Virus record (IMG/VR): IMGVR_UViG_3300021440_000014
Location: 1-64,000 of that record
Source: a virus
Direction: 5' to 3' (one strand)
Length of the DNA: 64,000 nucleotides
How positions within the stretch are numbered: position 1 is the stretch's first letter; every line of letters starts with the position of its first letter. A program made the translations under genes and the position numbers. Shown here in pieces: positions 18,253-35,315 of this stretch. The notes beneath the pieces are model-generated. The model was not told the origin of the DNA. It searched no databases and saw nothing but the letters and a program-made list of their open reading frames with translations.

Positions 18253-18253
18253 T

Positions 18254-18757
18254 ATGTCTTCAATTTACGATATTCAAGATTGGAATTACTCATTTCCTTA
18301 TGTTAGAAATGATATAGTAAGATACGCGGGTAATTTCCTTTACTCACTTAAAGATATAGCCGAAAATACGGATTTTTCTTATGAAAATTTTGGCGGTTTT
18401 ATAATAACAAATGAAAGAAAACCAAATTTTATTTGGAAACCTTCGTTTCCTGTTAAGTATAATACTGTGAATAGGATAATTAATACATCTTTTAAAGAAG
18501 GTGCGTTAAGTCTTGGATACGATGGAATAAATAGTAACTCTATAGAAATAGAAATGAATTTTTCGAGCAGGGATGATAAAGAGGCAGCGGCAATATGTCA
18601 CTTCTTAGACCAAAGGGGTGGCGTAGAATCTTTTTATTACACGGTAGGTTTCCCATTTAATGTCTCTAAGTTATTTATATGCAAAGAGTGGCAAAGCACA
18701 CCTTCTAGCCTGAATATAAATAACATAACAGCCACATTTAAACAAGTATTCAACTAA
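18254..18757 (+). CDS. Second lambda gpM-like minor tail protein (paralogue)
   Basis: MSSIYDIQDW aligns with MDSIFNIEEW of the previous gene. PNFIWKPS, DGINS, FLDQRGGVESF, ITATFKQVF. Confidence 0.75.
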   Translation: MSSIYDIQDWNYSFPYVRNDIVRYAGNFLYSLKDIAENTDFSYENFGGFIITNERKPNFIWKPSFPVKYNTVNRIINTSFKEGALSLGYDGINSNSIEIEMNFSSRDDKEAAAICHFLDQRGGVESFYYTVGFPFNVSKLFICKEWQSTPSSLNINNITATFKQVFN

Positions 18758-19818
18758 TGAATAAAGATCAAGCCATAATTTCATCAAAGAAGTTGCTTTT
18801 AGAATCAACTTCTCTTTCCCCTTCTTCTTTAATCACATTGTTTGAAATGGACATTTCTGACTTAGCTTTTGATAAAGGAATTATAGGAGAGATAACAGAA
18901 TTTAATGAAGAAGATAGAATCTTTAGGTTCCATAATAATATACCTTTAATTTCTAATCAAATAGTTTGGAAAGGTAAAACTTTCTATGGATTGCCAGTTA
19001 AGGCAGAAGGATTCGAAATAAATGGAAGAGGAACCTTGCCAACGCCAAAATTATCCATATCAACTAATGAAGAAGGAGTTCCGTTCCTATCTAAATTAAA
19101 AGTCCAAATCAATAGACTTGGTGATCTAACAGGTATAAAAGTTACAAGAATAAGAACTTTTTATAAATATTTGGATGCAATCAATTTCGAGAATAGCGAA
19201 AATCCAAACGCAGATCCTTATGTAGAATTTCCAAGAGACGTATTTTATGTAGACAGAAAAACCATAGAAAATAAAAATACGATAGAATTTGAGTTGGCAT
19301 CGATTTTAGATGTGGAGGGAATTAAGCTTCCAGCGAGAATCGTTGTATCAAATAGATGCACTTGGCAGTATAGGGGCCAAGGATGCTTATACGAATCAGA
19401 GGCCAATAGAAATGTTGAGGTTCATGGACCAGAAAATAAAAGTAGACTTCCTTCTTCCGCCCCTCCTGTGGCTACTGAAAAGGGGGATTTAATTTCTGAA
19501 CTATTACCAGATGGAACAAGTTTAAACTATAGAGGAAAGCACGATAAAAATCTTACTTACAACATTGGCGATTATGTCTACATTGAAAAAAATGGTATAA
19601 AATACTATTTTGTCGCGCATACTTTAGTTCCAGAGAATACTTTTCCTCCAAATGGAAAATATTGGATTCAGGACGGTTGCAGTAAGTTAGTTAATAATGG
19701 ATGTAAGTATAGATGGGGAGTTATTGGAGGAACTGCCGCGCCGGGAAGAGCAAACGGAAACCCTCACAATGGATGTCTACCGTTCGGCGGTTTCTCCGCA
19801 GTTAGTAAGGTTAGGTAA
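18757..19818 (+). CDS. Lambda gpL-like minor tail protein
   Basis: LITLFEMD, IVWKGKTF.GLPVKAEGFE...LPTPKLSI, KVTRIRT..KYLDA.NF, and Fe-S cysteines CTWQYRGQGC and DGCSK...GC..R, LPFGGF. Confidence 0.9.
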   Translation: MNKDQAIISSKKLLLESTSLSPSSLITLFEMDISDLAFDKGIIGEITEFNEEDRIFRFHNNIPLISNQIVWKGKTFYGLPVKAEGFEINGRGTLPTPKLSISTNEEGVPFLSKLKVQINRLGDLTGIKVTRIRTFYKYLDAINFENSENPNADPYVEFPRDVFYVDRKTIENKNTIEFELASILDVEGIKLPARIVVSNRCTWQYRGQGCLYESEANRNVEVHGPENKSRLPSSAPPVATEKGDLISELLPDGTSLNYRGKHDKNLTYNIGDYVYIEKNGIKYYFVAHTLVPENTFPPNGKYWIQDGCSKLVNNGCKYRWGVIGGTAAPGRANGNPHNGCLPFGGFSAVSKVR

Positions 19819-20561
19819 TGATAAGCGAAATAAATAAGAAAATTATAAAAGAACACGCTTTAGAGGACTGCTCTAAAGAGTGCTGTGGACTTATTTATTC
19901 TAATGGAGAGAATGGTCAGTCCGTATTTAAAAGTAGGAACATATCTTCTCAGCCTGAAAATTTCTTTGAAATAGATCCAAAAGACTATCTTAAAGCCTCA
20001 CTAGAGGGAAAAGTTATAGGTTTTTACCATAGCCATTTCGGAGAACATGCTAATTCTTTTACAGATTTTGATATTTTAAATTGCGAAAGATTTAAAATGT
20101 TCGGTGTCATTTACGATATAAGGACGGATTCATTCTCTTACTATTCTCCATCTGGTTATAAGCTTCCATACACGGAAAGAGAGTATGTCATAGGTGGAAT
20201 AGACTGTTTTTCTCTTGTTAGGGATTTTTACAAAAATGAACTTAATATAGAAATAACAGACCTTGAAACGAAGTATAGGTATATAGAACACAAACCGGAA
20301 CATCCAGATAATGTTGGCTGTTTAAATATACTACCGGAACATTTTAAAAATAATAATTTTATAGAAGTTAAAGACCTGAAAGAAAACGATATCATTTTGA
20401 TGAATAGTGATAAAATTTTATCCCCAATTCATTGTTCTATTTATAGGGGGAATAATTATATTTTACATCATCCGTTTGGCGCAAAATCAAGAATAGAAAG
20501 AATAAGAAGTTGGCACACAAAATATACAACTCACAAATTTAGACATAAGAGCATGTTATGA
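19818..20561 (+). CDS. Lambda gpK-like tail assembly protein (JAB/MPN plus NlpC/P60)
   Basis: HA...KECCGLI and FYHSH (JAB). DCFSLVRDFY...HCSIY...ILHH (NlpC/P60). Confidence 0.9.
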   Translation: MISEINKKIIKEHALEDCSKECCGLIYSNGENGQSVFKSRNISSQPENFFEIDPKDYLKASLEGKVIGFYHSHFGEHANSFTDFDILNCERFKMFGVIYDIRTDSFSYYSPSGYKLPYTEREYVIGGIDCFSLVRDFYKNELNIEITDLETKYRYIEHKPEHPDNVGCLNILPEHFKNNNFIEVKDLKENDIILMNSDKILSPIHCSIYRGNNYILHHPFGAKSRIERIRSWHTKYTTHKFRHKSML

Positions 20562-21211
20562 AAAAGTTAACAAATATAAAGCTTCATGGGATATTAGGCG
20601 AAGAGGTTGGGATAAAAGAATGTAATCTTTCGATATCTTCTGTTTCAGAAGCTATCAGAGCATTAGAGGCTTTAACAAAGAATAAGCTTTATAAATTTTT
20701 TAGGGATAAAGACTCGGAAGGAATTGCCTATAAGGTTTTAATTAACGGAAGGGAAGCAGAGGTCGAAAACTTAAAAGAAGATGATCTTGATAGAATTAAA
20801 AACAGTGAGCTATGCATGAATTTTAATGATTTAAAAAGTATAGATATAGTCCCCGTTATTCAGGGGTCAGGGAAAGCGGGATCTATAGGAGCAATAGTTT
20901 TAGGTGTCATATTAATAATAGTTGGAGCCTATCTCTCTGCTTTTGGTGGTGCGGCCCTAATTGGCGCAGGTATAGGTTTAATTGTTGGCGGCGTCATGTA
21001 TCTTCTCTCTAGTCCTCCCAAAATAGACGATTTTAGAGAAGTTAAAGGCGGGGGAAGAACTTCTTATCTGTTCAGTGGCCCTCAAAACACAACTAGAGAA
21101 GGTGGGCCTGTTCCCGTAGGATACGGAAGAATGATTGTAGGAAGTCAAGTAATATCTGCTTCTTACGAAGTGTCACATGCTAACGCAGATTATAATCCAT
21201 TAACATCATAA
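20558..21211 (+). CDS. Lambda gpI-like tail assembly protein
   Basis: IKLHGILG...EAIRAL, IDIVPVIQGSG, Gly-rich hydrophobic segment, SYLFSGPQNT..EGGPVPVGYGRMIVGSQVIS. Confidence 0.9.
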   Translation: MKKLTNIKLHGILGEEVGIKECNLSISSVSEAIRALEALTKNKLYKFFRDKDSEGIAYKVLINGREAEVENLKEDDLDRIKNSELCMNFNDLKSIDIVPVIQGSGKAGSIGAIVLGVILIIVGAYLSAFGGAALIGAGIGLIVGGVMYLLSSPPKIDDFREVKGGGRTSYLFSGPQNTTREGGPVPVGYGRMIVGSQVISASYEVSHANADYNPLTS

Positions 21212-24200
21212 TGAGCGACGAAATTAAATTTTTCATAAAAGGTGCCGGTGGCTCACAACCCGAACAACCTAAAGCAAGAATTCCTGTAGAAGCCAGAGAG
21301 GGTATAAGCGGGCAATTTATAGAAAGCGGAAATCTTAGCGTTCCGGTTGATAGAGTTGTTTCTCTTACTCAGATTAGAACTTTAGACTTAATCTCCGAAG
21401 GCGAACTAGAAGGTCTTGTTTCGGGTGAGTATTCTTATGTTGGGTATCCGGGTGAAATTGGATATAGAAGTGCAGTTTTCAAGCCTTTTCAAAGTAAAGT
21501 AATTGGTGGTAAGTCAATACCTTATCTCAGATCTATTTACTGGAACGAAACTCCAGTGGTGGATAAAGATAATTTATTTAACTTCCAGCAGATAGATGTA
21601 ACCTATTCTGCCGGAACTCCAAATGGAAGCTCTTCTGTGGGGATTGGAGATGAGCTAACAATAAGTAGGAACATTCAGGAAAGATTGAGAGGCCCAAACT
21701 CAATACTAGACGCGAAAAATAAACAGCAAGCAATAGGAGAAGCAGAACAATTTGCTAAATACTATAGGATTCTAAATAAAGACTGTAAAGGAGCTATCGT
21801 TAATGTAAGAGTCAACGCTCTTTCTCAAACAATAGTAGGTGGAACTAAAGCTGGTGATACGGCAGCTTCATCTATATTTTATAGAATTTATTATAAACCA
21901 ATATTCAATAAAGCAGGAACAATATCAGCAGAAAATGTAGGCCCAGAAGATCAAGCGGGATACATCGAAGGCAAAGAAGAGATAATAAGAGGCAAAATTA
22001 GTTACGGATACATTAGATCTACAAGAATAACTTTTGATGAGGCTTATTTCCAAGATCCAACTTTTATAGGATGGGCAATTAAAGTATTCAGACTCACTCC
22101 AGATTCTCTTCAGGGAACTTTAAGAAATCAAACCTACATTGATAGCATAACTGAAATTTATGGAAACTCTTTCTGCTATCCAAACTCAGCTATAGTTTCT
22201 CAGAAATTCAGCGCAGAATACTTCAATCAAATCCCAGCAAGAGCATTTGACGTAAGGCTTTTAAAAGTAAAAATTCCTTCAAACTATGACCCAATAACTA
22301 AAACGTATGAAGGAATATGGGATGGGACTTGGAAGTCGGACGAGTATGGCAATGATGGGTTATTTTGGACGGATAATCCGGCATGGTGTTTTTACGACAT
22401 CCTAACTAATAGCAGATATGGGCTAGGCAAGTATATCTCTAGCTCTTTAGTCGATAAATGGACGCTTTACCAAATCTCTCAATATTGCGACACAATGGTT
22501 CCAGATGGGGTAGGCGGCGTCGAACCAAGGTTTACCTGCAACATGATTATTACTAGCAGGGAAGAAGCCTATAGGGTTCTGAGCGACATGGCAAGCATAT
22601 TTAGAGCTATCCTATATTATCAAGGTGGATCAATATACACTTCGATGGATATAGAGAAAGACTCTATCTATCAGTTTTCCAATTCTAACGTAGCAGAAGG
22701 CAATTTTAATTATTCTTCTAGCAGTAAAAGAGTAAGGCATTCGGTAGCTATAGTAAGGTATAATGACAAAACGAATTTTTATTTGCCAGCAATAGAATAC
22801 GTAGAAGATACTGAAGCCATCAAAAAGTATGGATATAGAGAGCTAGAGGTAGCCGCTTTTGGCTGCACAAGTAGGGGTCAAGCTATCAGGTTCGGAAGAT
22901 GGGCATTACTTAGCGAATCTCTTGAAACCGAAACCGTATCCTTCGATGCGGGCCTTGAATCATGTTATCTTAAACCGGGGGATATTTTTAGAGTATCAGA
23001 CTACTATAAAACAAATTCAAGAAGAGGCGGAAGAATTTATGATGCATATAAAAGTGGGCAAAGTTCAGTAGTTCTTTTGGACGACATAGTAACAGGGTTC
23101 AAAGATAGCTCTACATATAAATTAGCAATAACTTCTCCTTCTTACAGTTTCGATCCAACACTTGTTGAAGGGATTACAAGCGACGACATTTCAAACATAA
23201 GAAAAAATCAAGTCCAATTAATAACTTTTTCTGGTGGAGACGTTTCATCTATAAGCGGCTATTCTAGAGTTATAATTAATGAAGACAATTGGTCCAACCA
23301 AATAGATTTTAAAAATAGATATGTAGTGCCTAGATCAGTATGGACTATAGAAGCTACGGGAAATGATTTGTATGATAATAATTTTAATAATCAATGGGAT
23401 TATTATAGAGTCATAAAAATTGAAGAAAAAGAAGAGAATCTATTTGGCATAAATGCTCTTCAGTATGATTTATCTAAATATCAAGCCGTAGATTCTGGTC
23501 TTAACTTTGAAAATCAAGTTGTTCAAATCGGTAACGTAAGTGCGCCTGACTCTCTATTTTTAGAGTATGTAGATTTAGAAGGATCTAGTAATCTAAAAGC
23601 TATTAAATACTCTATCTCGAAGACGAACATGGATGGAGTAAACGGATTCCTTGTTTATGCTAAACTTGGAGATTGGGAGTCAGAAGATTTTTCAGAAAGA
23701 TTTACCAACGGTAATATTCCTCAAGTAATACCTCAGACTCCAAACAGCGAGTTTTTAATTAACGTTGCCTCTAATAGTAATCCAAGCGGAAATTTCATTC
23801 CCCTTGAAAATGGAACATACTACTTTAGAGTTTATTCAAGGAATCTTCAAGGTATACCTTCTGAAAATGGGGTTTCTAGTTCCATTTCAGTATTTGATCT
23901 TAATAAATTTCAAGGCTTAAGAATAAGCTCTCTTAGAGTCGAAGGAAATTCAGATGCGTTGTTATCTCAAAAAGCTGAAGATACTATATCCTTTATTTCT
24001 CCGACTTTTAGATGGCAGGCATCTTTAGAAAATGCTCCTTCTACACCCTATACTCTAGGGGATGTATATTACAGAATGACGATTAGGAAATCTACAAGTC
24101 CTAACTCTTCTGCGCCCGCTACATCAGATGAAAGCCCTATCGTTGGAGATCCTTATCAGCCTTCTAGCGTTATATACCACGAAGAAAAAGGGTATAAACC

Positions 24201-25506
24201 GGATGACGTAAATAATCCTAGTTTATCATTCGATTTAATTGAAAATATTTCTGCTTTTACTAAATATTATACAAATCAGCCTCAAGGTCTTACTCCAAGT
24301 GGGGCTATAAGAGATTACGATGTAGTCGTAGAAGCACATCTTCAAGACGGATCTAGTTCGGCTGGAGGCAATATATTCTCTACGGTAAGAGGAGGAAATT
24401 TAGATTCTGAGTATTCTCAAAGCAAAACTAATGGATGGGATATTTTACATGTAAATAATCCAAAAATACCAGCCATACAATTAACGGAGCAAGCAGATTT
24501 GGACTCCTGCCAAATAGCAGCAGTATCAGACCCCACAAGAATATGCACGGAGCAGTGGATTAACTCTAATGGAACCGTAAGTATAGATATTAAGACTAAT
24601 AATCTGCTAGATGATATAGCTGGAGGTTTTATATATAGTTGCAGAGAAATTTTTTCCACAGAAGAAGCTTTAAATGGCAAAAAAGCAAATGGAACGTCTA
24701 TTTACAGAGGAGAATTTTCGGATTTATCTAATCCGTTAAATGCAGCCTCTAATTTGAAAGACATTAAAAATGGATACGTTGCAGTATCTTTTTATGACAA
24801 TTTAGATAAAGCTTTCAGGGATGAAATGCTCAAGGTTAACCCTAAATACAATGACGTATTTATTAGCGGTTTAAATGTTTCTAATGCTGCTGGGGCAAAA
24901 CTTAAATCAATATCTTCTACTCTTGGCAGCTATGTTGCGTGGGGGCAAGTATTTTTTAAAGGAAAGAGAAAAACAGGTTCAACGACCAAATGGGTAATAG
25001 AAGAGTTGTCTTGGTTTGGGCCGGGAATAATAAGTGTTATCGATGACGGCTCTACTCAAAACTACGCAAAAATAAGAATAGGATTAGACTCGGAATTAGT
25101 AGACCAAAATGCAAATACCGCATTTAATATATCTTATACTTATTCTAATACTCCAGTTGGGACAAATACAGTTCCGGTTTTTAAAACAAATAAAAACTTG
25201 CCATTACTTTCAGCAGGGACTTCTCCACATAATAGATTTACTATTGCAGACAATAATTTGCCTATAGAATATATTTCTAAATGGACTAATCCATCAAGCG
25301 TAGAAGATATTCATCATTACAACTTAGAAAATGTTGTTACTATCTTAGAGCTAACAAATGAATACGCTATAGCAAAAATAGATATTCCTCAATTAACTGC
25401 GACTTCCAGCATTTATAATGCGACAACAGAAGCAAAAATATTCATTGGAATAATGCAGTCTTCGGAAGGAAAAACTCTATCAGCGGACATAGGTAAAGAA
25501 TTTTAA
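21211..25506 (+). CDS. Lambda gpJ-like central tail tip / host-specificity protein
   Basis: LDLISEGELEGLV, KVKIPSNYDP, WDGTWK, WTDNPAWCFYDILTNSRYGLG, DKWTLY.ISQYCD..VPDG, EPRFTCN, AFGCTSRGQA.R.GRW. Confidence 0.92.
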   Translation: MSDEIKFFIKGAGGSQPEQPKARIPVEAREGISGQFIESGNLSVPVDRVVSLTQIRTLDLISEGELEGLVSGEYSYVGYPGEIGYRSAVFKPFQSKVIGGKSIPYLRSIYWNETPVVDKDNLFNFQQIDVTYSAGTPNGSSSVGIGDELTISRNIQERLRGPNSILDAKNKQQAIGEAEQFAKYYRILNKDCKGAIVNVRVNALSQTIVGGTKAGDTAASSIFYRIYYKPIFNKAGTISAENVGPEDQAGYIEGKEEIIRGKISYGYIRSTRITFDEAYFQDPTFIGWAIKVFRLTPDSLQGTLRNQTYIDSITEIYGNSFCYPNSAIVSQKFSAEYFNQIPARAFDVRLLKVKIPSNYDPITKTYEGIWDGTWKSDEYGNDGLFWTDNPAWCFYDILTNSRYGLGKYISSSLVDKWTLYQISQYCDTMVPDGVGGVEPRFTCNMIITSREEAYRVLSDMASIFRAILYYQGGSIYTSMDIEKDSIYQFSNSNVAEGNFNYSSSSKRVRHSVAIVRYNDKTNFYLPAIEYVEDTEAIKKYGYRELEVAAFGCTSRGQAIRFGRWALLSESLETETVSFDAGLESCYLKPGDIFRVSDYYKTNSRRGGRIYDAYKSGQSSVVLLDDIVTGFKDSSTYKLAITSPSYSFDPTLVEGITSDDISNIRKNQVQLITFSGGDVSSISGYSRVIINEDNWSNQIDFKNRYVVPRSVWTIEATGNDLYDNNFNNQWDYYRVIKIEEKEENLFGINALQYDLSKYQAVDSGLNFENQVVQIGNVSAPDSLFLEYVDLEGSSNLKAIKYSISKTNMDGVNGFLVYAKLGDWESEDFSERFTNGNIPQVIPQTPNSEFLINVASNSNPSGNFIPLENGTYYFRVYSRNLQGIPSENGVSSSISVFDLNKFQGLRISSLRVEGNSDALLSQKAEDTISFISPTFRWQASLENAPSTPYTLGDVYYRMTIRKSTSPNSSAPATSDESPIVGDPYQPSSVIYHEEKGYKPDDVNNPSLSFDLIENISAFTKYYTNQPQGLTPSGAIRDYDVVVEAHLQDGSSSAGGNIFSTVRGGNLDSEYSQSKTNGWDILHVNNPKIPAIQLTEQADLDSCQIAAVSDPTRICTEQWINSNGTVSIDIKTNNLLDDIAGGFIYSCREIFSTEEALNGKKANGTSIYRGEFSDLSNPLNAASNLKDIKNGYVAVSFYDNLDKAFRDEMLKVNPKYNDVFISGLNVSNAAGAKLKSISSTLGSYVAWGQVFFKGKRKTGSTTKWVIEELSWFGPGIISVIDDGSTQNYAKIRIGLDSELVDQNANTAFNISYTYSNTPVGTNTVPVFKTNKNLPLLSAGTSPHNRFTIADNNLPIEYISKWTNPSSVEDIHHYNLENVVTILELTNEYAIAKIDIPQLTATSSIYNATTEAKIFIGIMQSSEGKTLSADIGKEF

Positions 25507-25511
25507 AATAT

Positions 25512-26375
25512 ATGAGAGCATCAATACTAAAAAACACAAACAGAGCAGTTTCATCTTCAGAGGAATCTTGGGGATCGCTTAGAGAAAACACAATGGTAAA
25601 ATTTGGAAATGATTCTGAATTCTACAAAATTGGTTCAAGTAAGCAATTCATGTTCATAAAAAACTTTAAGTCAATTAATCAAAATCAAATTCTTATTGAA
25701 GACGATATTGGAATTGCCCTGAACGTTTTAGATACAGTTCAAGTATCCTTTAAGGAATATGAGCTTTTAACCGTTATTAAGGAAGAGAATAGGGGGAGCA
25801 AATATAAAGTGGGAGATTTACTTACTATTGCTGGCGGAATTCCGTCTAAAGACACTCAGACCAATATTGATTATTCTACTAAGTTGGTAGTATCGGAGGT
25901 TGGCGCAGATGGGGAAATATTACAAATAAGACTGGAGCATCCGGGTAAATATATTTGCGCTCCAGAACAGAAATGTAATTTAATTGGCGGGCATGGTAGC
26001 GGAGCGACTGTATTGGCAGATTTCGTAGTATCAGATCATCGATACATTACTGAAAGAACAGTGACGAGAATAGATAAAAATGAAAAAGGAACAATTATTA
26101 CCCTTGACTCCAAGATAGACTCAGCAGTTACAGATGGTAAAATTTCTGTAACTAAATGGGAGCTTTTTATTACGTCTAATTACGCGGGAGAATCAAAATA
26201 TAATGAGCAGATACAATTTATAAGAGATTTCTCGCCAAATTTAGGTATTCCATTTTTATTGAAGGATAATCAATCCCCAGAAGCTATTTACAATTTAGCA
26301 ATATTGAAAATAGACTCTGAGTTTACTAAACTTCAAAATAGGATAAAAGAGCTAGAATCAAGAATTAGGGGATAA
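25512..26375 (+). CDS. Putative tail-associated protein
   Basis: Directly after gpJ. Beta-rich with a GSKYKVGD...GG.GSGA module and a C-terminal coiled coil (LQNRIKELESRI). Confidence 0.5.
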   Translation: MRASILKNTNRAVSSSEESWGSLRENTMVKFGNDSEFYKIGSSKQFMFIKNFKSINQNQILIEDDIGIALNVLDTVQVSFKEYELLTVIKEENRGSKYKVGDLLTIAGGIPSKDTQTNIDYSTKLVVSEVGADGEILQIRLEHPGKYICAPEQKCNLIGGHGSGATVLADFVVSDHRYITERTVTRIDKNEKGTIITLDSKIDSAVTDGKISVTKWELFITSNYAGESKYNEQIQFIRDFSPNLGIPFLLKDNQSPEAIYNLAILKIDSEFTKLQNRIKELESRIRG

Positions 26376-29300
26376 TAGTCCGCCATTTTTCTTTTGCTCT
26401 ATAATAACTTCCACAACTTTCGACTTGACAAGTTCGGCGAATTTCTTGCTGTTTTCTTGATCTTTTCCAGAGCGCGAACCTGAAGAGTCAGAAGATGTTT
26501 TAGATTCTACAGAACCTTCCTTAGACACGTTGACCGTGATGCTAATATTATTAGTTCCACCAGTAACGCTTTGGACTTGATTATTTGAACCTGAATCATT
26601 CTTGCCGTTAGACTTTAAAGATTTAACAGCTTCAGATAGCTCAGATATTACAGAGGATATTTTATCCATGTAATTAGACTCATTGCCATTTGAAGAATAA
26701 GATCCTACATATCCGCCTTCGGCATATTTTCTTCCATTATTTATATTGTTGAAGAAACTTGTTCCGTATTTGTCTACGGCTGATTTTTTAACTACAAATT
26801 CACCCCCAGTTAACATCGCGGGAATTTTATCCGTAGAAGAATTTCCGCCAAATACAGTGCCGCCCCCGGCATATTTTTTAATTATACCTCCATTAGCTCT
26901 GCCTAAACCATTAAAAATTGCTGCTACTTCTGTATCTCCAGAATTGTAAGATGTAGTTCCTCCAAACTTATCTCTTACAATATAGCCATCACTACCTTTT
27001 GTTATAGTAGACCCATCTCCTAGTTTCTTTGTATTAGAAGATGAGCTACCTATTTGACCTAATCCATAGGCACCAACCTGAATACCGGCAGATATATAAG
27101 CAGATCTTAGAGAATTATTTCTCTGCCTATTAAAGTTTCTAAGAGTTAATCTTCTATTTTTATCGTAGTCTTTCCTATCTCCAAGATAACCAATTAATTC
27201 CTGCTCTCTTTCGAACTTTAATCTATTAGCGGGATTATTTTCATCAGTTTGCCCCAAGGCTGATAACTGATTACTTACATTAAAATATCCTCCAGTAGGA
27301 CGTTTAGCATCATTATAAGCGAAAGCATTATTCAATACTATAGAAGATCTGTCCCCTTCAGAGAAACTTCTAGTTACCTGCGCTGCGCCAAAGTCCTGAT
27401 TTCCACGACTCTTCTTAGGCAGTTTAGTTCCATCTCCATATATAGGAGAATTTTTGTTCAACTCATTAAGGTAATCTTCGCCAATTGCTTGCACCGCAGA
27501 TCTTTTTATTACATATTCCCCTTCCGTCAGCATTGCTGGGACATCATCTCTAGTTCCTGACCCGCCTTTAACTCTGCCACCAGAGCTATATCTCATTATC
27601 TTGCCACCCATGTTCTTCTTTTGTGAAGTAGATGAGCTTCCAAAAGCCGAAGCCACGGACTTACCAGCTTCCCCAAGATACGAGAATAGTAAATTAGTAG
27701 ACAAATCTATGCTTAAATCTTGAACTCTTTTAAGAACTGAATTTCCAAAACTTCTAAATGCATCATCAGCGTCTTTAGTTCCATCTGCAAATGATTTAAA
27801 TGCGCTAGAGAACTCTGATTTGATTGTCGCAGCCGTAGTCACGGCTCCATCAGAAATTTCCTTATAATAGTCTTGACTATTGTATGCGGTTAACTCATTT
27901 CCAAATAAGCTCGCAGCTTGAGAAATTTTAAAATCTTTAGACTGTATTGATTTTTCATTTGCCAATCTTAATTGAGCATTATAATCTTTTCCGCTTATAT
28001 CTCCCCTATTATAAGCTTCTTTCGATCTAGCGGCTAAGAACTTTTCAGTTAAAGTAAGTTGTTTCTTAGCTATCTCGATTGCTGATAGCCCATTTCCAAT
28101 GGATTTTTTCTCTAATTTATCTAGCTGATCTCTTAAGTTTTTGGATTCTCTTAAATTTTCCGTGCCATCTTTAGATAATGCGGCCAATCTTGCTGCGCTA
28201 TTAGCTCTATTATCTAGGCTAGAAATAACAGAAGAGTAAGCTTGATTTGCATCGCCATTATCTCCAGTAGCCTGAAATACTGCTTGTTTCCTGAATAAAT
28301 CTTCGCCTATCTTACCAGATTGATCCGAGTTAAGTAATTGGCTCAATAATGAAGCAAATGACTCTCTTGTTCTTCTAGCCGTTAGCCCGCTCGTATCGAA
28401 CTGAATATTCTTTGCTTTTTCAGTTAATGCCTCAGATAATGTTCTTTCTTCACCTGCGCTAGGAGCAGGATTTATATACTTAGAAGAAGTTTGCTGAAGC
28501 GGAACAACGGGCGTATTTGGCGTTCTAATCCCAAATGCATCAAATAATGGGTCGCCAGCTAAAGGATTACTTTTACCTGCTGAAGCGTAAAATGAGATAG
28601 GATCTCCAATGGCTCCCCTAGAGCCGTCATACTTCTCTCCCCTTAACGCTGCTACAAGTTCAGCAACATTTTTAACGCTTACATTAAAACCATTATCGGA
28701 CGAAAGTTTCTGTAATATAGAGTCAAGATTTTGGCTATTTAATTTTATTTCGCTATATAAATTAGAAGACTGTCTTAATATTTCATCTTGTTTAGTTTCG
28801 GTTTTAAACTCATTAGTAAGCTGTTTTCTCGCTATCTCTTCTGGAGAAGCGGGTAGAAGATCATTAGGGAAGTTCTGTTTAATTGTATTGGCTAAATCGC
28901 TAACCAAAGGCTCAAACAAGCTAGTTCCTTGAACGTCAACGCCTAAAGATTGAAGTAATTTTGCGTTTTGGAACTTACCTTGGCCGGAAAGACCGAAATC
29001 TCCAATTTGCGCCCCTAACTCAGAAAGCGTATTTCCAGTAAGGATAGACTGTTTAAAATTAGCAGAGTTGCTTAATATATTTCCTGCGCCCCCGCCAACG
29101 CTTAATTTCTTCTGAAGATCTATCAGATCTATTTCGGCTCTTCTTTTTTCTTCCGACAGAGTTACGAGTTCTTTATTCCTATTTTCTACAGATCCCACTT
29201 GTAGTCCCCTTGAAATACCTAAATTTTTTATTGTAGAATTTAGTTCTTCAAGTAACTTTTTTTGATCCGCCGTAGTTTCCGCAGTTCCATCTGGTCTTAC

Positions 29301-32300
29301 GAGTGGATCTAATTTTACAATACTTTTTTCTAAAAAGCCTTGTAATTTGTCTATCTGTTGAAAAACAGATCCAAAATCTCCAGAGGAAGAAGATTTAGCT
29401 ATAGACTCTTTAAGATCTAATAGTGGGGCGGTAAATTCATTGGCTTTTCTAACTGCTGATTTTCCATCTCCAGTTGCTTCCGTTCCGGTTCCAAAAGCTT
29501 CTTCTATTCTTTTTTTGAGAATAGATAAAGCTCCATTATCAATAGAATCAGAAATTCCAGAAACAAAATTTTGATTGATTTTAGCTATCGAACTTACTCT
29601 TTCTTCTTCTATTTGTCTTCTATCATTCTGGAATCTAAGATTAGTTAAAGTTTTAGGCCCAGCAAAATTTTCCTGTATTTTAGCAAAATTTTCAAATCTT
29701 AAAGAATTAGATTTTTTCTGAAACTCTAAGTTAGCAGTCGCCTCCTCATTAACAGAAGACATTACTGTTTTAAAGTTATTTATTACTTCTATAGTTCTAA
29801 ATAAAGAAGCTGAAAAATCTGATGTAGTTTCTAAAGTTCTTTCTCTCTCAGATTTTCCAAGAGCTTCTCTGTTCACTCTTTTTAAAACCGCATCTCCAGA
29901 TAAGTTTTGTTCTAGAAATCTTTGAAATTTATCTATAAACTCGATTGGGTTTGTTTTAGCTCCTTCTTTTAAACTTTGAATAGCATCAAATTTTTGGGTA
30001 TCTGGTAAATTTGATTTATTTATAAAGTTTTCAAAAGCTTTAACACTGGCTTCTATCGAAGACGCAGGAGAGAGAGGATCAAACTTTTTAAATCCTTCTT
30101 CAATATCTTTTTTGAAATTTACCACTTCCGAAAGAGGAATATTTTGTAAATTTTGACCATTTTTAAATGGAATTTGGTTTATAAATCTATTAAAACTTTC
30201 AGAACTAGATACGTTTTCTCTTGTTCTAAATTTTAAATCCTGTAATACTCCGAGGTCATAAGAAGGATCTGCGCCAGCACCCAAAATATCAAGAGAGCCA
30301 ACTGAAGTTCTTCTGTTATTTATAGCTTCTTCTAGTCTATCTCTATTTGGAATAGAAAACTTTTCTAATTTATTATTTATGTTTTCTGATCTACCTAATT
30401 TAGAAACATCTTTTTTCGTATTAGAACCAAACTCTACTGCAAAATCTGCGTTTTTCTTTTCAAAAGCTATAGAATCAATAATTTCTTTAACAGCTTCCTG
30501 TAGACCTTTAAAACCTCCAGTAGATAAACCTTGATTAATTTTGCCTCTTTGTTCCAAGGATAGATTACCAAAAATATTTTTTTGCTCTTTTTGTAATTCG
30601 CTTATTTTTTCAGAACTTAAACCCCTACTATTTCTAAGGGAATCTTCTAATTTAATATAATTAGATAGATTTTCAGAATTTTCCCTATAAGAAGTATTTA
30701 TCCTCTCTAAATTCTTTTGTAAATCTGGAAGGTTACTTATAAATGCTTCAAAAATTCTAGGAAATTCAGTTGCTACTCCAATAGCGGCACCAGCCGCTAT
30801 TCCCGGTGCGCCAAATACTGCACCAAGCCCAGCGTAAGACGCAACATTTCCGACTGATTGAGTTAATTGACCAAATCCTCTTTGGTTTTTAGTTTCGTCT
30901 GTAAAAAGCTGAGATCCAATGCCACCCAAAATTGGGGCAGCAAATCCAGCGGCTATAGAAATAGTATTTAATTTGGAATCGCGGCTTTGTTTAGCGGCTT
31001 CGTATCTTTCTCTATTTTCATTTTTTAATTGATTAGCCTTTGTTCTTGTTTCTCCAAAAAAAAGACTTTTTAAAGAACCTGCTGCGTCAATCTTTTCCTG
31101 AAGAATTGCCTCTTCTTCTTTAAGTTTTGCGGTTTTTTTCTCTTGTATTTTTAATTGAGTAAAATACTCCCCCTTCATTTTTCTACTTAAAGGAACTATA
31201 TCATTAATTATTCTGTTTACTTCAGTAAAATCGTCGGAAGTTCCACCAAGTTTCCTTATGTTCTGTTCTATTACATTCTTAAAATTTTCTACGTTTTTCT
31301 TTTTAGATGATACTTCCCCTGTTTTAATTTTATTAGAAAAAGAAGATATCAAATCATTGATTACCTCAGATCCACCTAATTTATTTATAGATGGGTTTCT
31401 GAAAGAGAAATTTTCTTTCAAAAAGAATGAATCGTAACCAGAATTTTGAATTAATTTAGACTTAGAGCCTATTCTTTTAGAAAGTTCTTCAGATTCCAAA
31501 GATTCTCTTTCTTTTTTGCCAGCAAGATAGTTTTGCATTGAAGAAAATTTAATTTCTCCTTTTGGTTCATCAGGGAAAAACCCATAAGCGTTTTTATTAT
31601 AATTAACTGATCTTGTAAGGCTATTTCTTAAGCTTTTTACGCCTTTTGCCGTTAAGCTAAATTCCTCAGATAAATCTTTAATTTTGGAGTCTACATCTTT
31701 GAAGGTAAATGTGTCATTTTTAATTTGAGATTTTAAATCTTCCAAAACTCTTTGGAACTCTTCCCTTTTGGATGCGGGAGTAAAAGGCTTAAAGGTTTCT
31801 GAGCTAGATGCAAAATCCGGGGCATAGTTAGGAATTAACCCATCAGCCGCGCCATGCGTCTTAGGATTTAGCCCTTGGCTCAAAGCCCTATTAATGCCCT
31901 GATTTAATCCAAGTGGCTCATCCTTTGTGTTATATACCCCAAGTCCAGCAGGATTCAGTGGAGATTTAAGAAAAGGAGATGAAGAAGCCTTTATTAAAGA
32001 AGGAGAAACTCCCGCCCCGACTTCTCTACTTACTGCTTTAGAAAGAGATGAATAGTTAGGTATTAATCCTTTTGAGGCCGGAATTAGTCCAGAATCCCTC
32101 AAGTATTTAGTTAAACTTAAGTCGTTTAGACCAACTTCCCTGCTTCTTCCAAATGTTCCATTTTTTACTAGAAATTTTAATTTAGGTTGAGCAAAAGCAT
32201 TAGTAATAGCCTCTGCAACCGATTCAAGTTTATTTACATTTACTATTTTATTGGAAATTTTAGCAAAATCATTTTCTCCTGCAACAGAAATACCAGTTGC

Positions 32301-35300
32301 AGTATTAAGGGTTTTTCCTCCTAGTTGAGAATGAGTTTCATCAAATATTTTAGAAGGGATTCTACTCGTTATATCTAGCTTGTCGTCAAGGAAATGAGAG
32401 TATTCATGAATTAAGGCTCTTGAAGTTTTTCTGGCGGAAATAGACTGAAGATCTTCCTTCATTCTGCCAGAGAGTTGACCGTATCCTCCTTTGAAGCCAA
32501 AATTATCGTCTAGTTTTCCAGCTAAATTATCAAAATTTAAAGTAATTAAATCTGGATCATATACCGCTTTTGTGCTAGAAGATAATTTGCCCTCTATCTT
32601 TCTAAAATCTTTTGCCACGTCTAATTTTGGTGTTGCGCCCACTTTACCAAGAATAAAATTAGAATATTTCTCGAAAGATTCAGTAGAGAGGGCTTTACTT
32701 ATAAATTCATCAGGAGTAAGAGAAAAATTACTATAAGACTTAGGATCTGTCACCAACCTATCTTCTAAATTAATACTGCTAAATAAATTACTCGCGTAAT
32801 TAGGAACTATTCCAGCCGCGCCAAATTGAGATTTCAACTCTTTTAATCTTGATTTAGATAATTTAAATTCTCCGGGATCTATAACGGTCGCCAAGCTTCC
32901 ATTGGCCACCATTGCGGCAAATGTTTGAGAATTTTTATCTCCAAATCCACTTAAGAAATTAGCAGAATTTCTGCTATTAGCTAAAGCAGAAAGCTCCCTG
33001 CTTAATCTATCATTAACAGTAAAATTACTTAAATGAAGATCATCTGGCGTTATCCCATGATTTAAATCGAAATTTTCAAAAGCCTTACCTATGTATGAAG
33101 TTGAAAAAAGTCTAGTTACTGCGTCAGAAGAGTTTTCATGACTCGTTGGATCTTTTATAAACTCTTTATAAATACCTCCTTCAGATAATGAATTATTTAA
33201 AGATTTAAAAATTTTAGGAAATTTTACTCCCGGCAAAGAAATACTTTCGAGATACTTAGAGATTAAGTATTCTTTTTCAATCTCTCTAGGATCTACAAAT
33301 TTTTTAAATTGTTTAAAACCAACTGGAACGCCGCCAATTAGCTGTTTTAAATCTAGGAATCTTGCGTTTTGGCCTATCTCCCCAATTTGCTCTCCTTGTA
33401 TTCTATAATTTGGAACAAGACCAGCCGCAAAATTCTTATATGGATCAAACCCATGAACATCTTCGAAAGCTTTTTTATAGTTCGTGCCAGCTTCACTATT
33501 TTTAGGAGGAAGGATAGCGGGTTGACTCATCCCGAAGTCTTTAACTTGTTCTTTTGAGTTATAAATCACATTTCCCATGCCGGGAACTGACATCCTCTTT
33601 ATAGAACCAGCTTCGTAACCACCTAGCAATGCGCCAACCTTTTCTTTCGTCTCTTCAGGGATTAATCCTCCAGCAGCGGTCTTACCCGGAGAATTTGGCA
33701 ACACTATTTTACCAGCCTTATCAAAGCCTATCTGATTAGATTTCAAGAAATTAGCTGAAGCCTTCGATGTTACAGCGTCTAATCTAGAAATAGCCTCAAG
33801 TCTTTGCTGAGTAAGAGACAATAATGTTCTTTCTACTTCAACTTGAGAAATTGTTTTATTAAGTATTTTTTCCCTTAATCCCGGCTCAAAAGAAAGAGTA
33901 TCTTTCAGTGCCTCGGATATCTGTTTCTGTTGCAGCGCAAATTTATTAAGACCAGCAAAGCTTTTTAATGCGTCTGCCGTAAATTCTGCGAAAGATAACG
34001 CCAATTTACCTACAGCAATAGAGACTATCGCCAGCCCCGGACCAGCAATAAACTCTCCAAGTCCCTTCAAGGCACCATCAGCTATTTGTCTTCCAATTCC
34101 TTTTGACTGTTCGCCAACATCCCCAAATAAAGACTCAACTATTCCCGTCGTGTTTTTTATAACAGGAGCGATGGTAAGATTGCCAACAGTTTCACCTAAC
34201 TGCCTAAATGTCTCTTTACTCTTGTTGAGAACCGAAGCCAAGCTTTTATTATATTCTTCGTTCCTTTTGCTGGCTTCGTTTTGGGACTGAGCGGATTTTT
34301 GAGTGGCTTGATCTACTACGCTGTATTCCTTAGACAAGTCGCCAAGCAAGGCTTTTAAAATGTTAATTTGATAAACGCTACCGACAAGTTCAGCTAAGTA
34401 AGACTGTTGAGAGTCCGAAGCACTATTAAAAGTTCCAGCAAAGTTCTTTAAAATCTCTGACACTGGCAAAATCTGTTGTCCCGCCCCTCTTACTACAGTT
34501 CCCAAACTTTCTAGTTGAGCAATAACTTCTGGTCTTTCTATTCTTGTGAAAATAGTCTTTAAAGCGTTACCAATTACAGCACCACCACGGGCAGTTGTCT
34601 GCTGCGCTGAGGTAACAAAACCTATCAAGCTGTCAATACTAACTCCAGCTTCGGCAGCGGTGCTACCCACACGTTTCAGAGCCTCGGCTAAGTCTTTTGA
34701 GCTAACGGCAAATGCCGCGTCAACATTAGCGAATTTGTTAATTACTTCTGTAGACGTTAATCCAGCCTTTGAAAAGCTGTTAACCGAAGCCGTAAGAGAT
34801 TCTACGCTATCTTCAAGAGATATACCGGCTTGCCTAGATAAAATAGCCGCATCTTTAAGTCTTATAAGGGTTTCTTCCGCACCAAGACCTTGACGTGCTA
34901 ATTCAGTAGCTCCAGCCGCAATTTCAGAAAAAGACTGACCCGTATCTTTAGCTATACTAAAGATTTCGTTTTTAAAATTAGAAAGCTCTTCAGCATTTTG
35001 ATTTAGGAGAGTATTTAATTCAGTAAATGACTTGTTAACTTCTATAGTAGAAGAAACTAAGCTTTTTATGCCCTGAGATACCTGAAATATTAAACCAGCA
35101 GAAGCTCCGAAAGCTATGACACGCGCATTCGCAGCCGCCATAGATTTCGAAAACTCGTCTGTAGAAGAGGTTATTTGACCAAGGGGTCTAGTTAAGGAGC
35201 TTGAATTGAGCCTTCTATTAAATAAATTCTGTATTTTAGACGCACTTTCCTCAGCTTGCCTAAATAAAGGAGAAAAATCTCCACCAACAGATAAATTGTA

Positions 35301-35315
35301 AGTCTCAACTGGCAT
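26358..35315 (-). CDS. Tape measure protein (TP901-type core) carrying internal kinase-like and zincin domains
   Basis: N-terminal TMP core (ELARQGL...FANVDAAFAVSSKDLAEAL...TARGGAVIGNALKTIFTRI), long helical body, hydrophobic segments, and C-terminal GG.V...D.VPAML..GE.V motifs like lambda gpH. Lies downstream of the tube and chaperone genes. Confidence 0.92.
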   Translation of the reverse strand: MPVETYNLSVGGDFSPLFRQAEESASKIQNLFNRRLNSSSLTRPLGQITSSTDEFSKSMAAANARVIAFGASAGLIFQVSQGIKSLVSSTIEVNKSFTELNTLLNQNAEELSNFKNEIFSIAKDTGQSFSEIAAGATELARQGLGAEETLIRLKDAAILSRQAGISLEDSVESLTASVNSFSKAGLTSTEVINKFANVDAAFAVSSKDLAEALKRVGSTAAEAGVSIDSLIGFVTSAQQTTARGGAVIGNALKTIFTRIERPEVIAQLESLGTVVRGAGQQILPVSEILKNFAGTFNSASDSQQSYLAELVGSVYQINILKALLGDLSKEYSVVDQATQKSAQSQNEASKRNEEYNKSLASVLNKSKETFRQLGETVGNLTIAPVIKNTTGIVESLFGDVGEQSKGIGRQIADGALKGLGEFIAGPGLAIVSIAVGKLALSFAEFTADALKSFAGLNKFALQQKQISEALKDTLSFEPGLREKILNKTISQVEVERTLLSLTQQRLEAISRLDAVTSKASANFLKSNQIGFDKAGKIVLPNSPGKTAAGGLIPEETKEKVGALLGGYEAGSIKRMSVPGMGNVIYNSKEQVKDFGMSQPAILPPKNSEAGTNYKKAFEDVHGFDPYKNFAAGLVPNYRIQGEQIGEIGQNARFLDLKQLIGGVPVGFKQFKKFVDPREIEKEYLISKYLESISLPGVKFPKIFKSLNNSLSEGGIYKEFIKDPTSHENSSDAVTRLFSTSYIGKAFENFDLNHGITPDDLHLSNFTVNDRLSRELSALANSRNSANFLSGFGDKNSQTFAAMVANGSLATVIDPGEFKLSKSRLKELKSQFGAAGIVPNYASNLFSSINLEDRLVTDPKSYSNFSLTPDEFISKALSTESFEKYSNFILGKVGATPKLDVAKDFRKIEGKLSSSTKAVYDPDLITLNFDNLAGKLDDNFGFKGGYGQLSGRMKEDLQSISARKTSRALIHEYSHFLDDKLDITSRIPSKIFDETHSQLGGKTLNTATGISVAGENDFAKISNKIVNVNKLESVAEAITNAFAQPKLKFLVKNGTFGRSREVGLNDLSLTKYLRDSGLIPASKGLIPNYSSLSKAVSREVGAGVSPSLIKASSSPFLKSPLNPAGLGVYNTKDEPLGLNQGINRALSQGLNPKTHGAADGLIPNYAPDFASSSETFKPFTPASKREEFQRVLEDLKSQIKNDTFTFKDVDSKIKDLSEEFSLTAKGVKSLRNSLTRSVNYNKNAYGFFPDEPKGEIKFSSMQNYLAGKKERESLESEELSKRIGSKSKLIQNSGYDSFFLKENFSFRNPSINKLGGSEVINDLISSFSNKIKTGEVSSKKKNVENFKNVIEQNIRKLGGTSDDFTEVNRIINDIVPLSRKMKGEYFTQLKIQEKKTAKLKEEEAILQEKIDAAGSLKSLFFGETRTKANQLKNENRERYEAAKQSRDSKLNTISIAAGFAAPILGGIGSQLFTDETKNQRGFGQLTQSVGNVASYAGLGAVFGAPGIAAGAAIGVATEFPRIFEAFISNLPDLQKNLERINTSYRENSENLSNYIKLEDSLRNSRGLSSEKISELQKEQKNIFGNLSLEQRGKINQGLSTGGFKGLQEAVKEIIDSIAFEKKNADFAVEFGSNTKKDVSKLGRSENINNKLEKFSIPNRDRLEEAINNRRTSVGSLDILGAGADPSYDLGVLQDLKFRTRENVSSSESFNRFINQIPFKNGQNLQNIPLSEVVNFKKDIEEGFKKFDPLSPASSIEASVKAFENFINKSNLPDTQKFDAIQSLKEGAKTNPIEFIDKFQRFLEQNLSGDAVLKRVNREALGKSERERTLETTSDFSASLFRTIEVINNFKTVMSSVNEEATANLEFQKKSNSLRFENFAKIQENFAGPKTLTNLRFQNDRRQIEEERVSSIAKINQNFVSGISDSIDNGALSILKKRIEEAFGTGTEATGDGKSAVRKANEFTAPLLDLKESIAKSSSSGDFGSVFQQIDKLQGFLEKSIVKLDPLVRPDGTAETTADQKKLLEELNSTIKNLGISRGLQVGSVENRNKELVTLSEEKRRAEIDLIDLQKKLSVGGGAGNILSNSANFKQSILTGNTLSELGAQIGDFGLSGQGKFQNAKLLQSLGVDVQGTSLFEPLVSDLANTIKQNFPNDLLPASPEEIARKQLTNEFKTETKQDEILRQSSNLYSEIKLNSQNLDSILQKLSSDNGFNVSVKNVAELVAALRGEKYDGSRGAIGDPISFYASAGKSNPLAGDPLFDAFGIRTPNTPVVPLQQTSSKYINPAPSAGEERTLSEALTEKAKNIQFDTSGLTARRTRESFASLLSQLLNSDQSGKIGEDLFRKQAVFQATGDNGDANQAYSSVISSLDNRANSAARLAALSKDGTENLRESKNLRDQLDKLEKKSIGNGLSAIEIAKKQLTLTEKFLAARSKEAYNRGDISGKDYNAQLRLANEKSIQSKDFKISQAASLFGNELTAYNSQDYYKEISDGAVTTAATIKSEFSSAFKSFADGTKDADDAFRSFGNSVLKRVQDLSIDLSTNLLFSYLGEAGKSVASAFGSSSTSQKKNMGGKIMRYSSGGRVKGGSGTRDDVPAMLTEGEYVIKRSAVQAIGEDYLNELNKNSPIYGDGTKLPKKSRGNQDFGAAQVTRSFSEGDRSSIVLNNAFAYNDAKRPTGGYFNVSNQLSALGQTDENNPANRLKFEREQELIGYLGDRKDYDKNRRLTLRNFNRQRNNSLRSAYISAGIQVGAYGLGQIGSSSSNTKKLGDGSTITKGSDGYIVRDKFGGTTSYNSGDTEVAAIFNGLGRANGGIIKKYAGGGTVFGGNSSTDKIPAMLTGGEFVVKKSAVDKYGTSFFNNINNGRKYAEGGYVGSYSSNGNESNYMDKISSVISELSEAVKSLKSNGKNDSGSNNQVQSVTGGTNNISITVNVSKEGSVESKTSSDSSGSRSGKDQENSKKFAELVKSKVVEVIIEQKKNGGLLSPNS

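Follow-up and report, generated by a model that had tools for sequence, protein, structure and literature searches.

A conserved active site within a tape measure protein

The stretch of DNA analysed here (the window) is the first 64 kb (64,000 nucleotides) of the IMG/VR record IMGVR_UViG_3300021440_000014, a 172,010-bp virus record from an uncultured phage with a G+C content of 35.2% and 15 transfer RNA (tRNA) genes. On the minus strand, at 26358-35315, a single uninterrupted open reading frame (ORF) encodes a 2985-amino acid (aa) protein, P0001, whose sequence matches confirm it as a tape measure protein (TMP) of the TP901 type. The PF10145 (PhageMin_Tail) core spans aa 122-311 (E 2.5e-23, 83 bits), and 15 tape-measure families of PHROG align with the N-terminal 450 residues and with a pair of repeated C-terminal motifs. 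The great length of the protein and its position in the tail module are likewise those of a TMP. Within it lies a module that resembles a pared-down protein kinase. An earlier note, made from the DNA letters, had proposed a kinase-like domain embedded in the TMP at 32820-33404, which corresponds to aa 638-832, and the PF10145 and PHROG matches bear out the embedding. The natural module comprises aa 632-840 and runs from a G-L-V-P-N-Y linker to the next G-I-V-P-N-Y linker.

All of the kinase motifs quoted in that note are present in the minus-strand frame of the ORF, in the order and place given there. They are IGEIGQNARF (aa 644-653, 33357-33386), VGFK (aa 665-668), EKEYLISKYL (aa 680-689), PKIF (aa 700-703), IYKEFI (aa 715-720), HGITPDDLHLSNF (aa 753-765) and TVIDPG (aa 810-815), and the catalytic D-x4-N, from D759 to N764, indeed occupies 33024-33041. 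One label needs amending. The motif IYKEFI, taken for the hinge, is more than a plain hinge because it holds a lysine (K717) that is invariant in the family and sits on the final strand of the predicted N-terminal lobe (N-lobe).

Conservation was assessed in an alignment of 33 near-full copies with a median pairwise identity of 28%. The family possesses the elements that define the protein-kinase-like superfamily, namely a GxGxxG loop, the beta3 lysine and alphaC glutamate, a catalytic Asp-x4-Asn and a downstream metal-binding Asp (Table 1). Thirty of the 33 copies retain all five catalytic residues. The exceptions each depart at one position, with Tyr for D759 in P0141, Gly for K668 in P0133 and Asp for E682 in the second copy of P0129. 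G666 and P700 are invariant (33/33), and N768 (31/33), G806 (32/33) and G815 (31/33) are nearly so. After K717 comes Glu in 23/33 copies or Gln in 6/33. The catalytic loop has the form D-L-H-x-x-N, its His at D+2 being present in 27/33 copies, and the residue after D813 is Pro in 18/33. Judged from the alignment, the conservation of the catalytic residues is well beyond chance at this degree of divergence. The ratio of nonsynonymous to synonymous substitution rates (dN/dS) is 0.06-0.19 for the closer pairs of copies, and the module is therefore under strong purifying selection.

The canonical nucleotide-binding loop G-x-G-x-x-[GAS]-x-[FY] is found in 31/33 copies. In the window copy an additional residue separates the first two glycines and Ala stands for the third, so the family consensus is more kinase-like than the window copy itself. 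This irregular loop is a caveat for the activity that may be expected of that particular copy. Together with the three copies that each lack one catalytic residue, it is what might be expected of a pseudokinase or structural spacer, i.e., a kinase-derived fold that provides no more than bulk or a binding module within the tail ruler. We regard this explanation as very improbable, since a spacer would not keep exactly the catalytic positions fixed, as 30 of 33 copies do at a median identity of 28% and under the purifying selection indicated by dN/dS. The module family is probably catalytically competent.

Predicted fold and relation to kinase families

The structure of aa 632-838 was predicted with AlphaFold2 from an alignment (A2) of 16 copies, comprising the window copy and copies from fetched loci. 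The model has a mean predicted local distance difference test score (pLDDT) of 79 and a predicted template modelling score of 0.78. The N-lobe core exceeds a pLDDT of 90, and the end linkers remain below 50 (linker 1 reaches 48 and is disordered). The model is two-lobed, with an N-lobe sheet and alphaC helix and a C-terminal lobe (C-lobe) core that bears the catalytic and metal-binding loops. The strands of the Gly loop and K668 are followed by the E682 helix, further strands ending with that of K717, and a long helix that leads into the C-lobe core. This core consists of the D759/N764 strand-loop-strand, three inserted helices, the D813 strand-loop-strand and one last helix. In model numbering, K668 lies in strand 32-39, E682 in helix 45-60 and K717 in strand 83-87. 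The catalytic residues thus occupy canonical secondary-structure elements, and the ranges aligned with known structures span both the catalytic and the metal-binding loop. Lys, Glu, Asp, Asn and Asp may accordingly converge on one site, as the earlier note required, the check being an indirect one that covered the topology of the predicted model and its aligned ranges. An insert of ~45 aa between the catalytic loop and D813 is specific to the family. Between D813 and the end of the module at the next linker there are 27 residues, so that the activation segment/APE and the whole helical C-terminal subdomain with helices F to I are absent.

Fold searches with the model returned kinase-like folds almost throughout. 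Foldseek against PDB gave 69 matches at E<=1e-3, with a kinase-like fold in every match listed. PRPK/Bud32, DAPK3, LIMK1, Kae1-Bud32 and CDC7 ranked at the top and Ark1, RIO1 and RIO2 further down, at template modelling scores of 0.45-0.50. When the Foldseek list was realigned with VIA-align, RIOK1 and DAPK1 (both Z 9.5) scored highest, followed by RIO1 (9.1), PRPK (8.9) and Ark1 (8.5). About 119-139 residues were aligned at a root-mean-square deviation (rmsd) of 3.1-3.6, with 131-138 residues at 3.2-3.4 for RIOK1 and DAPK1. A VIA-align search of 48,161 representative chains, run independently of Foldseek, placed kinase-like folds at all of the top 50 positions. The best was Rv3197 of the ABC1/UbiB type (Z 10.1, 138 residues aligned, rmsd 3.1), followed by RIO1 (9.1), RIOK3 (9.0), RIO2 (8.8), APH(2'') (8.7), Ark1 (8.4), Bud32 (8.3), OspG (8.0) and NleH1 (7.7). 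In the viral structure library BFVD, almost all matches are viral protein kinases or phosphotransferases. Model and searches thus agree on kinase-like folds, the opposite of the outcome that the earlier note had named as fatal to its proposal, and aa 632-840 very probably adopt such a fold.

Direct sequence comparison is less telling. Pfam and PHROG searches with the single segment found no kinase family, the sole match being CGI-121 below threshold, and phmmer of the segment against PDB sequences returned nothing. When the 16 members were scanned singly against Pfam, ABC1 (PF03109) appeared in one (E 0.1) and Pkinase (PF00069) likewise in one (E 0.24), neither passing the cut-off in any member. 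APH (PF01636), Kdo (PF06293) and the OspG kinase family (PF22303) gave no match at E<=1 in these members, and RIO1 (PF01163) is absent from their Pfam matches. The hidden Markov model (HMM) of RIO1 also found no match in a six-frame search of the 172-kb genome, a search whose controls were positive in 7 of 14 genomes. The A2 profile did reach kinases. Searched against all PDB sequences, it gave 164 matches at E<=10, and the top 60 are almost all protein kinases, with CDPK (E 0.002), Snf1, CK1, CDK2 and DAPK as the best. The alignments set the Gly loop against LGSGAYG, K668 against the AIK lysine of CDPK, and D759/N764 against HRDLKPEN. Taken on its own this line of evidence is weak, although the motifs appear in register. 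In the ESM Atlas, APH, OspG_kinase and Kdo are the named clusters that lie nearest. The resemblance to APH, Kdo, ABC1 and OspG is one of fold and language-model features only.

The empty phmmer search and the want of a Pfam kinase model on the single sequence are what a chance resemblance of short motifs, lacking any kinase fold, would produce. We assign this explanation next to no probability; it is refuted by the conservation across the family, the profile matches to kinases and three fold searches that gave kinase-like folds only. Because the Z scores of its RIO-, Bud32-, ABC1-, APH- and OspG-like neighbours lie within ~2 units of one another, we place the module as a distinct minimal family of the protein-kinase-like superfamily that is claimed by no Pfam kinase family. 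The assignment in the earlier note to a small atypical fold of the RIO/Bud32/ABC1 type with a complete catalytic set is supported by the conservation in 33 copies, the profile matches, the AlphaFold2 model and the fold searches.

The identity of these neighbours bears on what the module might phosphorylate. An active kinase-fold enzyme need not be a protein kinase and could instead act as an ATPase switch, or on an envelope glycolipid or sugar, a nucleic acid or a small molecule, during entry or early infection. ABC1/UbiB, RIO, APH, the tRNA 2'-kinase Ark1 and Bud32 are the nearest folds, and the ESM Atlas neighbours carry the APH and Kdo families. The entire substrate-binding C-terminal subdomain is missing, and the D-L-H-x-x-N form of the catalytic loop, with its His at D+2, is also compatible with such an enzyme. 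However, the best profile matches are true Ser/Thr protein kinases (CDPK, Snf1, CK1, CDK2, DAPK), the loop is a classical GxGxxGxF/Y, the protein-phosphorylating effectors OspG and NleH1 are equally close in fold, and no APH, Kdo or RIO model of Pfam matches. On balance, an ATPase switch or a kinase for a substrate other than protein appears unlikely.

The cassette array and its distribution

The module is part of an array. The motif G-[LI]-[IV]-P-N-Y occurs at aa 632, 835, 1083 and 1159 of the TMP and splits this region into the kinase-like module (aa 632-840), a module with the sequence H-E-Y-S-H (aa 841-1082) and a conserved unit (aa 1089-1158). In 145 related giant TMPs the wider linker consensus is A-[SA]-x-G-[FL]-[IV]-P-N-F-A, and the strict form G[FLYIM][IV]PN[FYL] occurs 677 times, against 0.35 occurrences expected from shuffled sequences. 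BLASTP with aa 560-631, from the unit that opens the array, matched 104 of 119 related giant TMPs at 55-69% identity. Opening and closing units are kept in more than 100 TMPs at this identity, with great variation in the sequence they enclose. When 609 inter-linker modules were roughly clustered, ~130 clusters resulted, of which 76 are singletons. Since conserved units bracket variable, linker-bounded modules, the kinase-like segment is one cassette of a variable array.

Giant TMPs of one lineage, found in large long-tailed phages, have the array in their N-terminal third, and in the window it sits between two Gly-rich hydrophobic regions (aa 418-448 and 1449-1517). If both of these regions were to enter the host membrane on ejection, the cassettes would come to lie together on one side of it. 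The opening and closing units are related to each other, are ~70-85 aa long and have no Pfam family. The near-invariant linker that bounds the cassettes could be a cleavage site, a docking site for a chaperone or the tail tube, or a recombination joint.

The module itself is confined to TMPs. An exhaustive phmmer search with aa 626-846 against 1.84 billion representative proteins yielded 27 matches at E<=0.001. The full-length matches have the size of a TMP, at 1.4-5.3 thousand residues. The two shortest, of 206 and 494 aa, contain nothing but the module or copies of it and look like fragments. An iterated HMM search over the collected proteins found 42 domain copies in 32 proteins, nine of which have two matches, mostly adjacent or nearly so. 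Among 145 related TMPs examined, 32 carry the kinase, ~24 of these having been collected through the kinase match. The cassette is located anywhere from aa 606 to aa 1830 and varies in copy number. Almost every module begins at a linker, and most finish at the next one.

Searches outside this setting returned no relative. A search with the family alignment found no free-standing relatives of 110-434 aa, and no second copy was found elsewhere in the 172-kb genome. No match emerged when the module was compared by tblastn with 50,697 phage records from GenBank, among which T7-like phages can be expected. A profile search of metagenome contigs (alignment A1) produced pattern matches among which no relative was confirmed, and a profile search of genome contigs (alignment A3) found nothing, so that neither a host nor a prophage carrying the module in a bacterium came to light.

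TMPs with double matches include P0003, P0130, P0126 and P0129 (loci L008, L010, L014 and L015), and in most of the nine the two copies adjoin or have a short gap between them. The second copy in P0129 is the one in which Asp replaces the alphaC Glu, and paired copies may perhaps combine a catalytic with a regulatory module.

The cassette that follows the kinase is a candidate zincin or protease on account of its H-E-Y-S-H sequence, a possible but unproven assignment. No family was found for it by BLASTP and phmmer against the 119 relatives and all 145 TMPs, by an iterated HMM or by a database search among proteins of 425-2000 aa, and it has no Pfam match. One weak pairwise match lies in the kinase-bearing TMP P0128 (E 2e-6 against that single sequence). 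A single-sequence AlphaFold2 model of the cassette has a pLDDT of 35, and the ESM Atlas offers weak zincin leads only. Other HExxH cassettes are present in the kinase-bearing TMPs P0003, P0005, P0128 and P0145, a biased sample. The kinase is carried by five of seven HExxH-bearing TMPs, and this co-occurrence is not used as evidence because the protein set was gathered through matches to this very region.

A further cassette family of 170-190 aa occurs in P0127 (aa 1103-1271; ~4307-4813 of locus L012), P0125, P0132 and P0138, often adjoining the kinase cassette. Its consensus centres around K-G-D-A, then P-Q, then Y-P-Q-L-[KR]-Y-R, and P0132 has three repeats.

This arrangement is relevant to where a kinase might work. 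It could act in the phage-producing cell, on the TMP, chaperones or tail proteins or as an ATP-driven solubility aid, and perhaps be excised at the linkers before the tail is completed. ATP is certainly present in that cell, the conserved linkers could be cleavage sites with a possible protease cassette adjoining, and a folded domain is a poor fit for the tail tube. Phage lambda offers a precedent, as its gpH loses a part while the tail is being assembled. Yet the kinase is one of ~130 interchangeable cassette types, has been found in 32 of 145 TMPs even though most of these were collected through it, and shifts in position and copy number. An assembly function would be expected in all such TMPs, and patchiness is typical of conflict effectors. 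A role in the producing cell therefore seems distinctly unlikely.

Table 1. Features of the tape measure gene and its cassette array, in protein order (positions in the window; conservation as copies with the residue among 33)
Feature	Residues (aa)	Positions	Strand	Basis or conservation
Tape measure protein gene (P0001)		26358-35315	-	single uninterrupted 2985-aa ORF
PF10145 core of the TMP	122-311	34383-34952	-	Pfam
Gly-rich hydrophobic segment, N-terminal of the array	418-448	33972-34064	-	Kyte-Doolittle scan
Conserved unit before the array (opening unit)	about 545-631	33423-33683	-	BLASTP with aa 560-631
Linker 1, G-L-V-P-N-Y, N-terminal border of the kinase module	632-637	33405-33422	-	motif
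Minimal protein-kinase-like module	632-840	32796-33422	-	linker to linker; contains segment 32820-33404
Gly-rich loop, G-E-I-G-Q-N-A-R-F	645-653	33357-33383	-	G645 and G648 33/33; F653 32/33
K668, equivalent of the beta3 (VAIK) lysine	668	33312-33314	-	32/33
E682, equivalent of the alphaC glutamate	682	33270-33272	-	32/33, plus one Asp
K717, family-specific invariant lysine, last N-lobe strand	717	33165-33167	-	33/33
Catalytic loop, D759-L-H-L-S-N764	759-764	33024-33041	-	D759 32/33; N764 33/33
Family-specific helical insert, catalytic loop to DFG-like Asp	769-805	32901-33011	-	three model helices; of variable length in the family
D813 of I-D-P-G, equivalent of the DFG aspartate	813	32877-32879	-	33/33
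Linker 2, G-I-V-P-N-Y, C-terminal border of the kinase module	835-840	32796-32813	-	motif
Next cassette (242 aa), H-E-Y-S-H at 32394-32408	841-1082	32070-32795	-	motif
Linker 3, closing unit and linker 4		31824-32069	-	motif, relatives
Linker 3	from 1083	32052-32069	-	motif
Conserved closing unit (70 aa)	1089-1158	31842-32051	-	common to 119 related TMPs, up to 66% identity
Linker 4	from 1159	31824-31841	-	motif
Gly-rich hydrophobic segments, C-terminal of the array	1449-1517	30765-30971	-	Kyte-Doolittle scan

Other features of the gene and its surroundings are those of a tail module. The duplicated C-terminal motif of the TMP lies at ~27460-27540 and 26740-26820 on the minus strand (aa 2593 and 2832). 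It reads P-A-M-L-T-x-G-E-[YF]-V-[IV]-K-[RK]-S-A-V after a Gly-rich stretch, and several TMP PHROGs match it in their C-terminal parts. Nearby, at 21211-25506, is a lambda J-like central fibre gene, and relatives carry a PF05939 minor tail protein gene downstream of the TMP gene. In the window, the distal tail genes at 17731-26375 on the plus strand, the J-like fibre included, converge on the TMP gene. In the related loci L009 and L012, a 262-263-aa protein and then the PF05939 minor tail protein follow the TMP gene in the same direction. Because the distal tail genes are convergent here and co-directional in those two loci, an inversion of the tail-tip block is suggested for the phage encoding P0001 and for L008, L010, L011 and L014.

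Parallels with known systems and a possible role

Among published domains, the truncated kinase found in polyvalent proteins comes closest. Phages and conjugative elements encode these huge multidomain proteins, which are presumed to accompany the DNA into the cell (Iyer, Burroughs, Anand, de Souza and Aravind 2017, PMC5512222). They include a monophyletic group of kinases that lost the whole C-terminal subdomain, kept the active site and gained an insert in the catalytic region, and zincin (MPTase) domains beside these kinases were proposed to cut the array into working units (PMC5512222). The idea of a virion-delivered kinase is thus less new than the earlier note implied. The TMP module resembles the polyvalent kinases in lacking the whole subdomain while retaining the residues for ATP binding and phosphotransfer, and in residing in a very large multidomain phage protein. 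A putative zincin beside the kinase module would be a further likeness. Compared by description only, the polyvalent kinases have their insert in the phosphotransfer region, where it separates the conserved His from the conserved Asp, and the ~45 aa of the TMP module fall between D-L-H-x-x-N and D813.

There are also differences. The polyvalent kinases have a conserved Gln in the last N-lobe strand, where the TMP module has the invariant K717. They have a Glu before strand 2, whereas the residue after the first loop Gly is variable in the TMP module and a Glu is not conserved. Stand-alone versions were reported for them and none was found for the TMP module. The 2017 paper makes no mention of tape measure proteins. 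The TMP module is set beside the polyvalent clade by description. No published kinase in a tape measure protein came up in full-text searches of the literature.

The cellular kinases RIO1, RIO2, RIOK and Bud32/PRPK are likewise small kinase-like domains without a full eukaryotic C-lobe and rank with the best structural matches (for RIOK1, RIO1 and PRPK, Z is 9.5, 9.1 and 8.9, and ~131-138 residues align at rmsd 3.1-3.3). They are ribosome or tRNA-modification factors, mainly ATPases, whereas the TMP module has the classical GxGxxG loop and the 45-aa insert before its metal-binding Asp. The type III secretion effectors OspG and NleH are minimal kinases of ~160-200 aa that pass through a narrow conduit on injection and become active in the recipient cell. 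Their folds match the module at Z 8.0 for OspG and 7.7 for NleH1, with no detectable sequence relationship. They are bacterial proteins directed against eukaryotic cells, and the likeness is an analogy of design rather than of membership.

The T7 kinase (T7K, gp0.7) disarms defence systems through hyper-promiscuous phosphorylation, and its D-P-V in place of DFG is credited with constitutive activity (2026 paper, PMC13645617). The TMP family may be compared at this position, with D-P-G in the window copy and Pro in 18/33 copies. T7K is an early gene product made after entry and no part of the virion, whereas the module is part of the TMP, and the C-terminal DNA-binding/shut-off domain of T7K is absent from the module. 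The parallel is suggestive only, because the module had no sequence match in the 50,697 phage records. As for TMPs themselves, that of mycobacteriophage TM4 is reported to carry a peptidoglycan hydrolase motif (PMC1796659). Such inserts and the kinase module are alike in being functional modules other than the ruler, housed within the TMP and thought to act during infection. The cell wall is the target of the known inserts, which work outside the cytoplasm and without ATP, whereas a kinase module needs ATP, which implies a cytoplasmic site.

We propose that a competent minimal kinase cassette enters the host with the TMP and acts early. The module has an N-lobe, a catalytic loop and a metal-binding Asp without the C-terminal subdomain that holds substrates and regulators in ordinary protein kinases. 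The TMP would be expelled from the tail ahead of the DNA, and the cassette would therefore enter the new host as protein. There it could refold, much as OspG and NleH do after passage through a narrow needle, and act while still attached or after cleavage at the linkers, for which the HExxH cassette next to it may be responsible. Using host ATP, it may then phosphorylate host proteins, such as defence or nucleic-acid-binding proteins by analogy with the T7 kinase, before any phage gene is expressed. We hold the chances of this account as a whole to be even or somewhat lower. The array would in effect be a polyvalent effector array built into the tail ruler. A still more specific version is possible but doubtful, in which the TMP is an injection vehicle for swappable effector cassettes that include a constitutively active minimal D-P-G kinase, striking host defence and nucleic-acid-binding proteins before phage transcription. 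Such a TMP-borne kinase would amount to the broad anti-defence action of the T7 kinase in pre-loaded form.

Several points weigh against the proposal of a delivered kinase. The similarity to known kinases is moderate, with VIA-align Z scores of 8-10 and best profile-to-PDB E-values of only 0.002, and the Gly loop of the window copy is irregular, as described above. The fold neighbours include enzymes that are not protein kinases, namely the RIO/Bud32 ATPases, Ark1 (tRNA), APH (antibiotics) and UbiB (lipid metabolism), and for this reason a protein substrate can only be inferred. Delivery into the host and release from the TMP are inferred as well. A folded domain of 200 aa measures ~4 nm, about the width of the tail-tube lumen, and would be a tight fit. 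With several TMP copies in the tube, the cassettes would have to stack in single file or stay partly unfolded.

The family provides a compact natural case, 200 residues in size, of a pared-down kinase with every catalytic residue kept. Since a kinase needs ATP, part of the tail ruler would reach the cytoplasm and act there as an enzyme, whereas the known TMP inserts attack the cell wall. The family also extends the idea of polyvalent proteins to the tail ruler, with cassettes sharply bounded by linkers. An active, delivered kinase of this type would be timely now that the T7 kinase has been shown to disarm many defence systems (PMC13645617). If active and delivered, the module would give these phages a tool for counter-defence or host takeover at time zero, independent of phage transcription.

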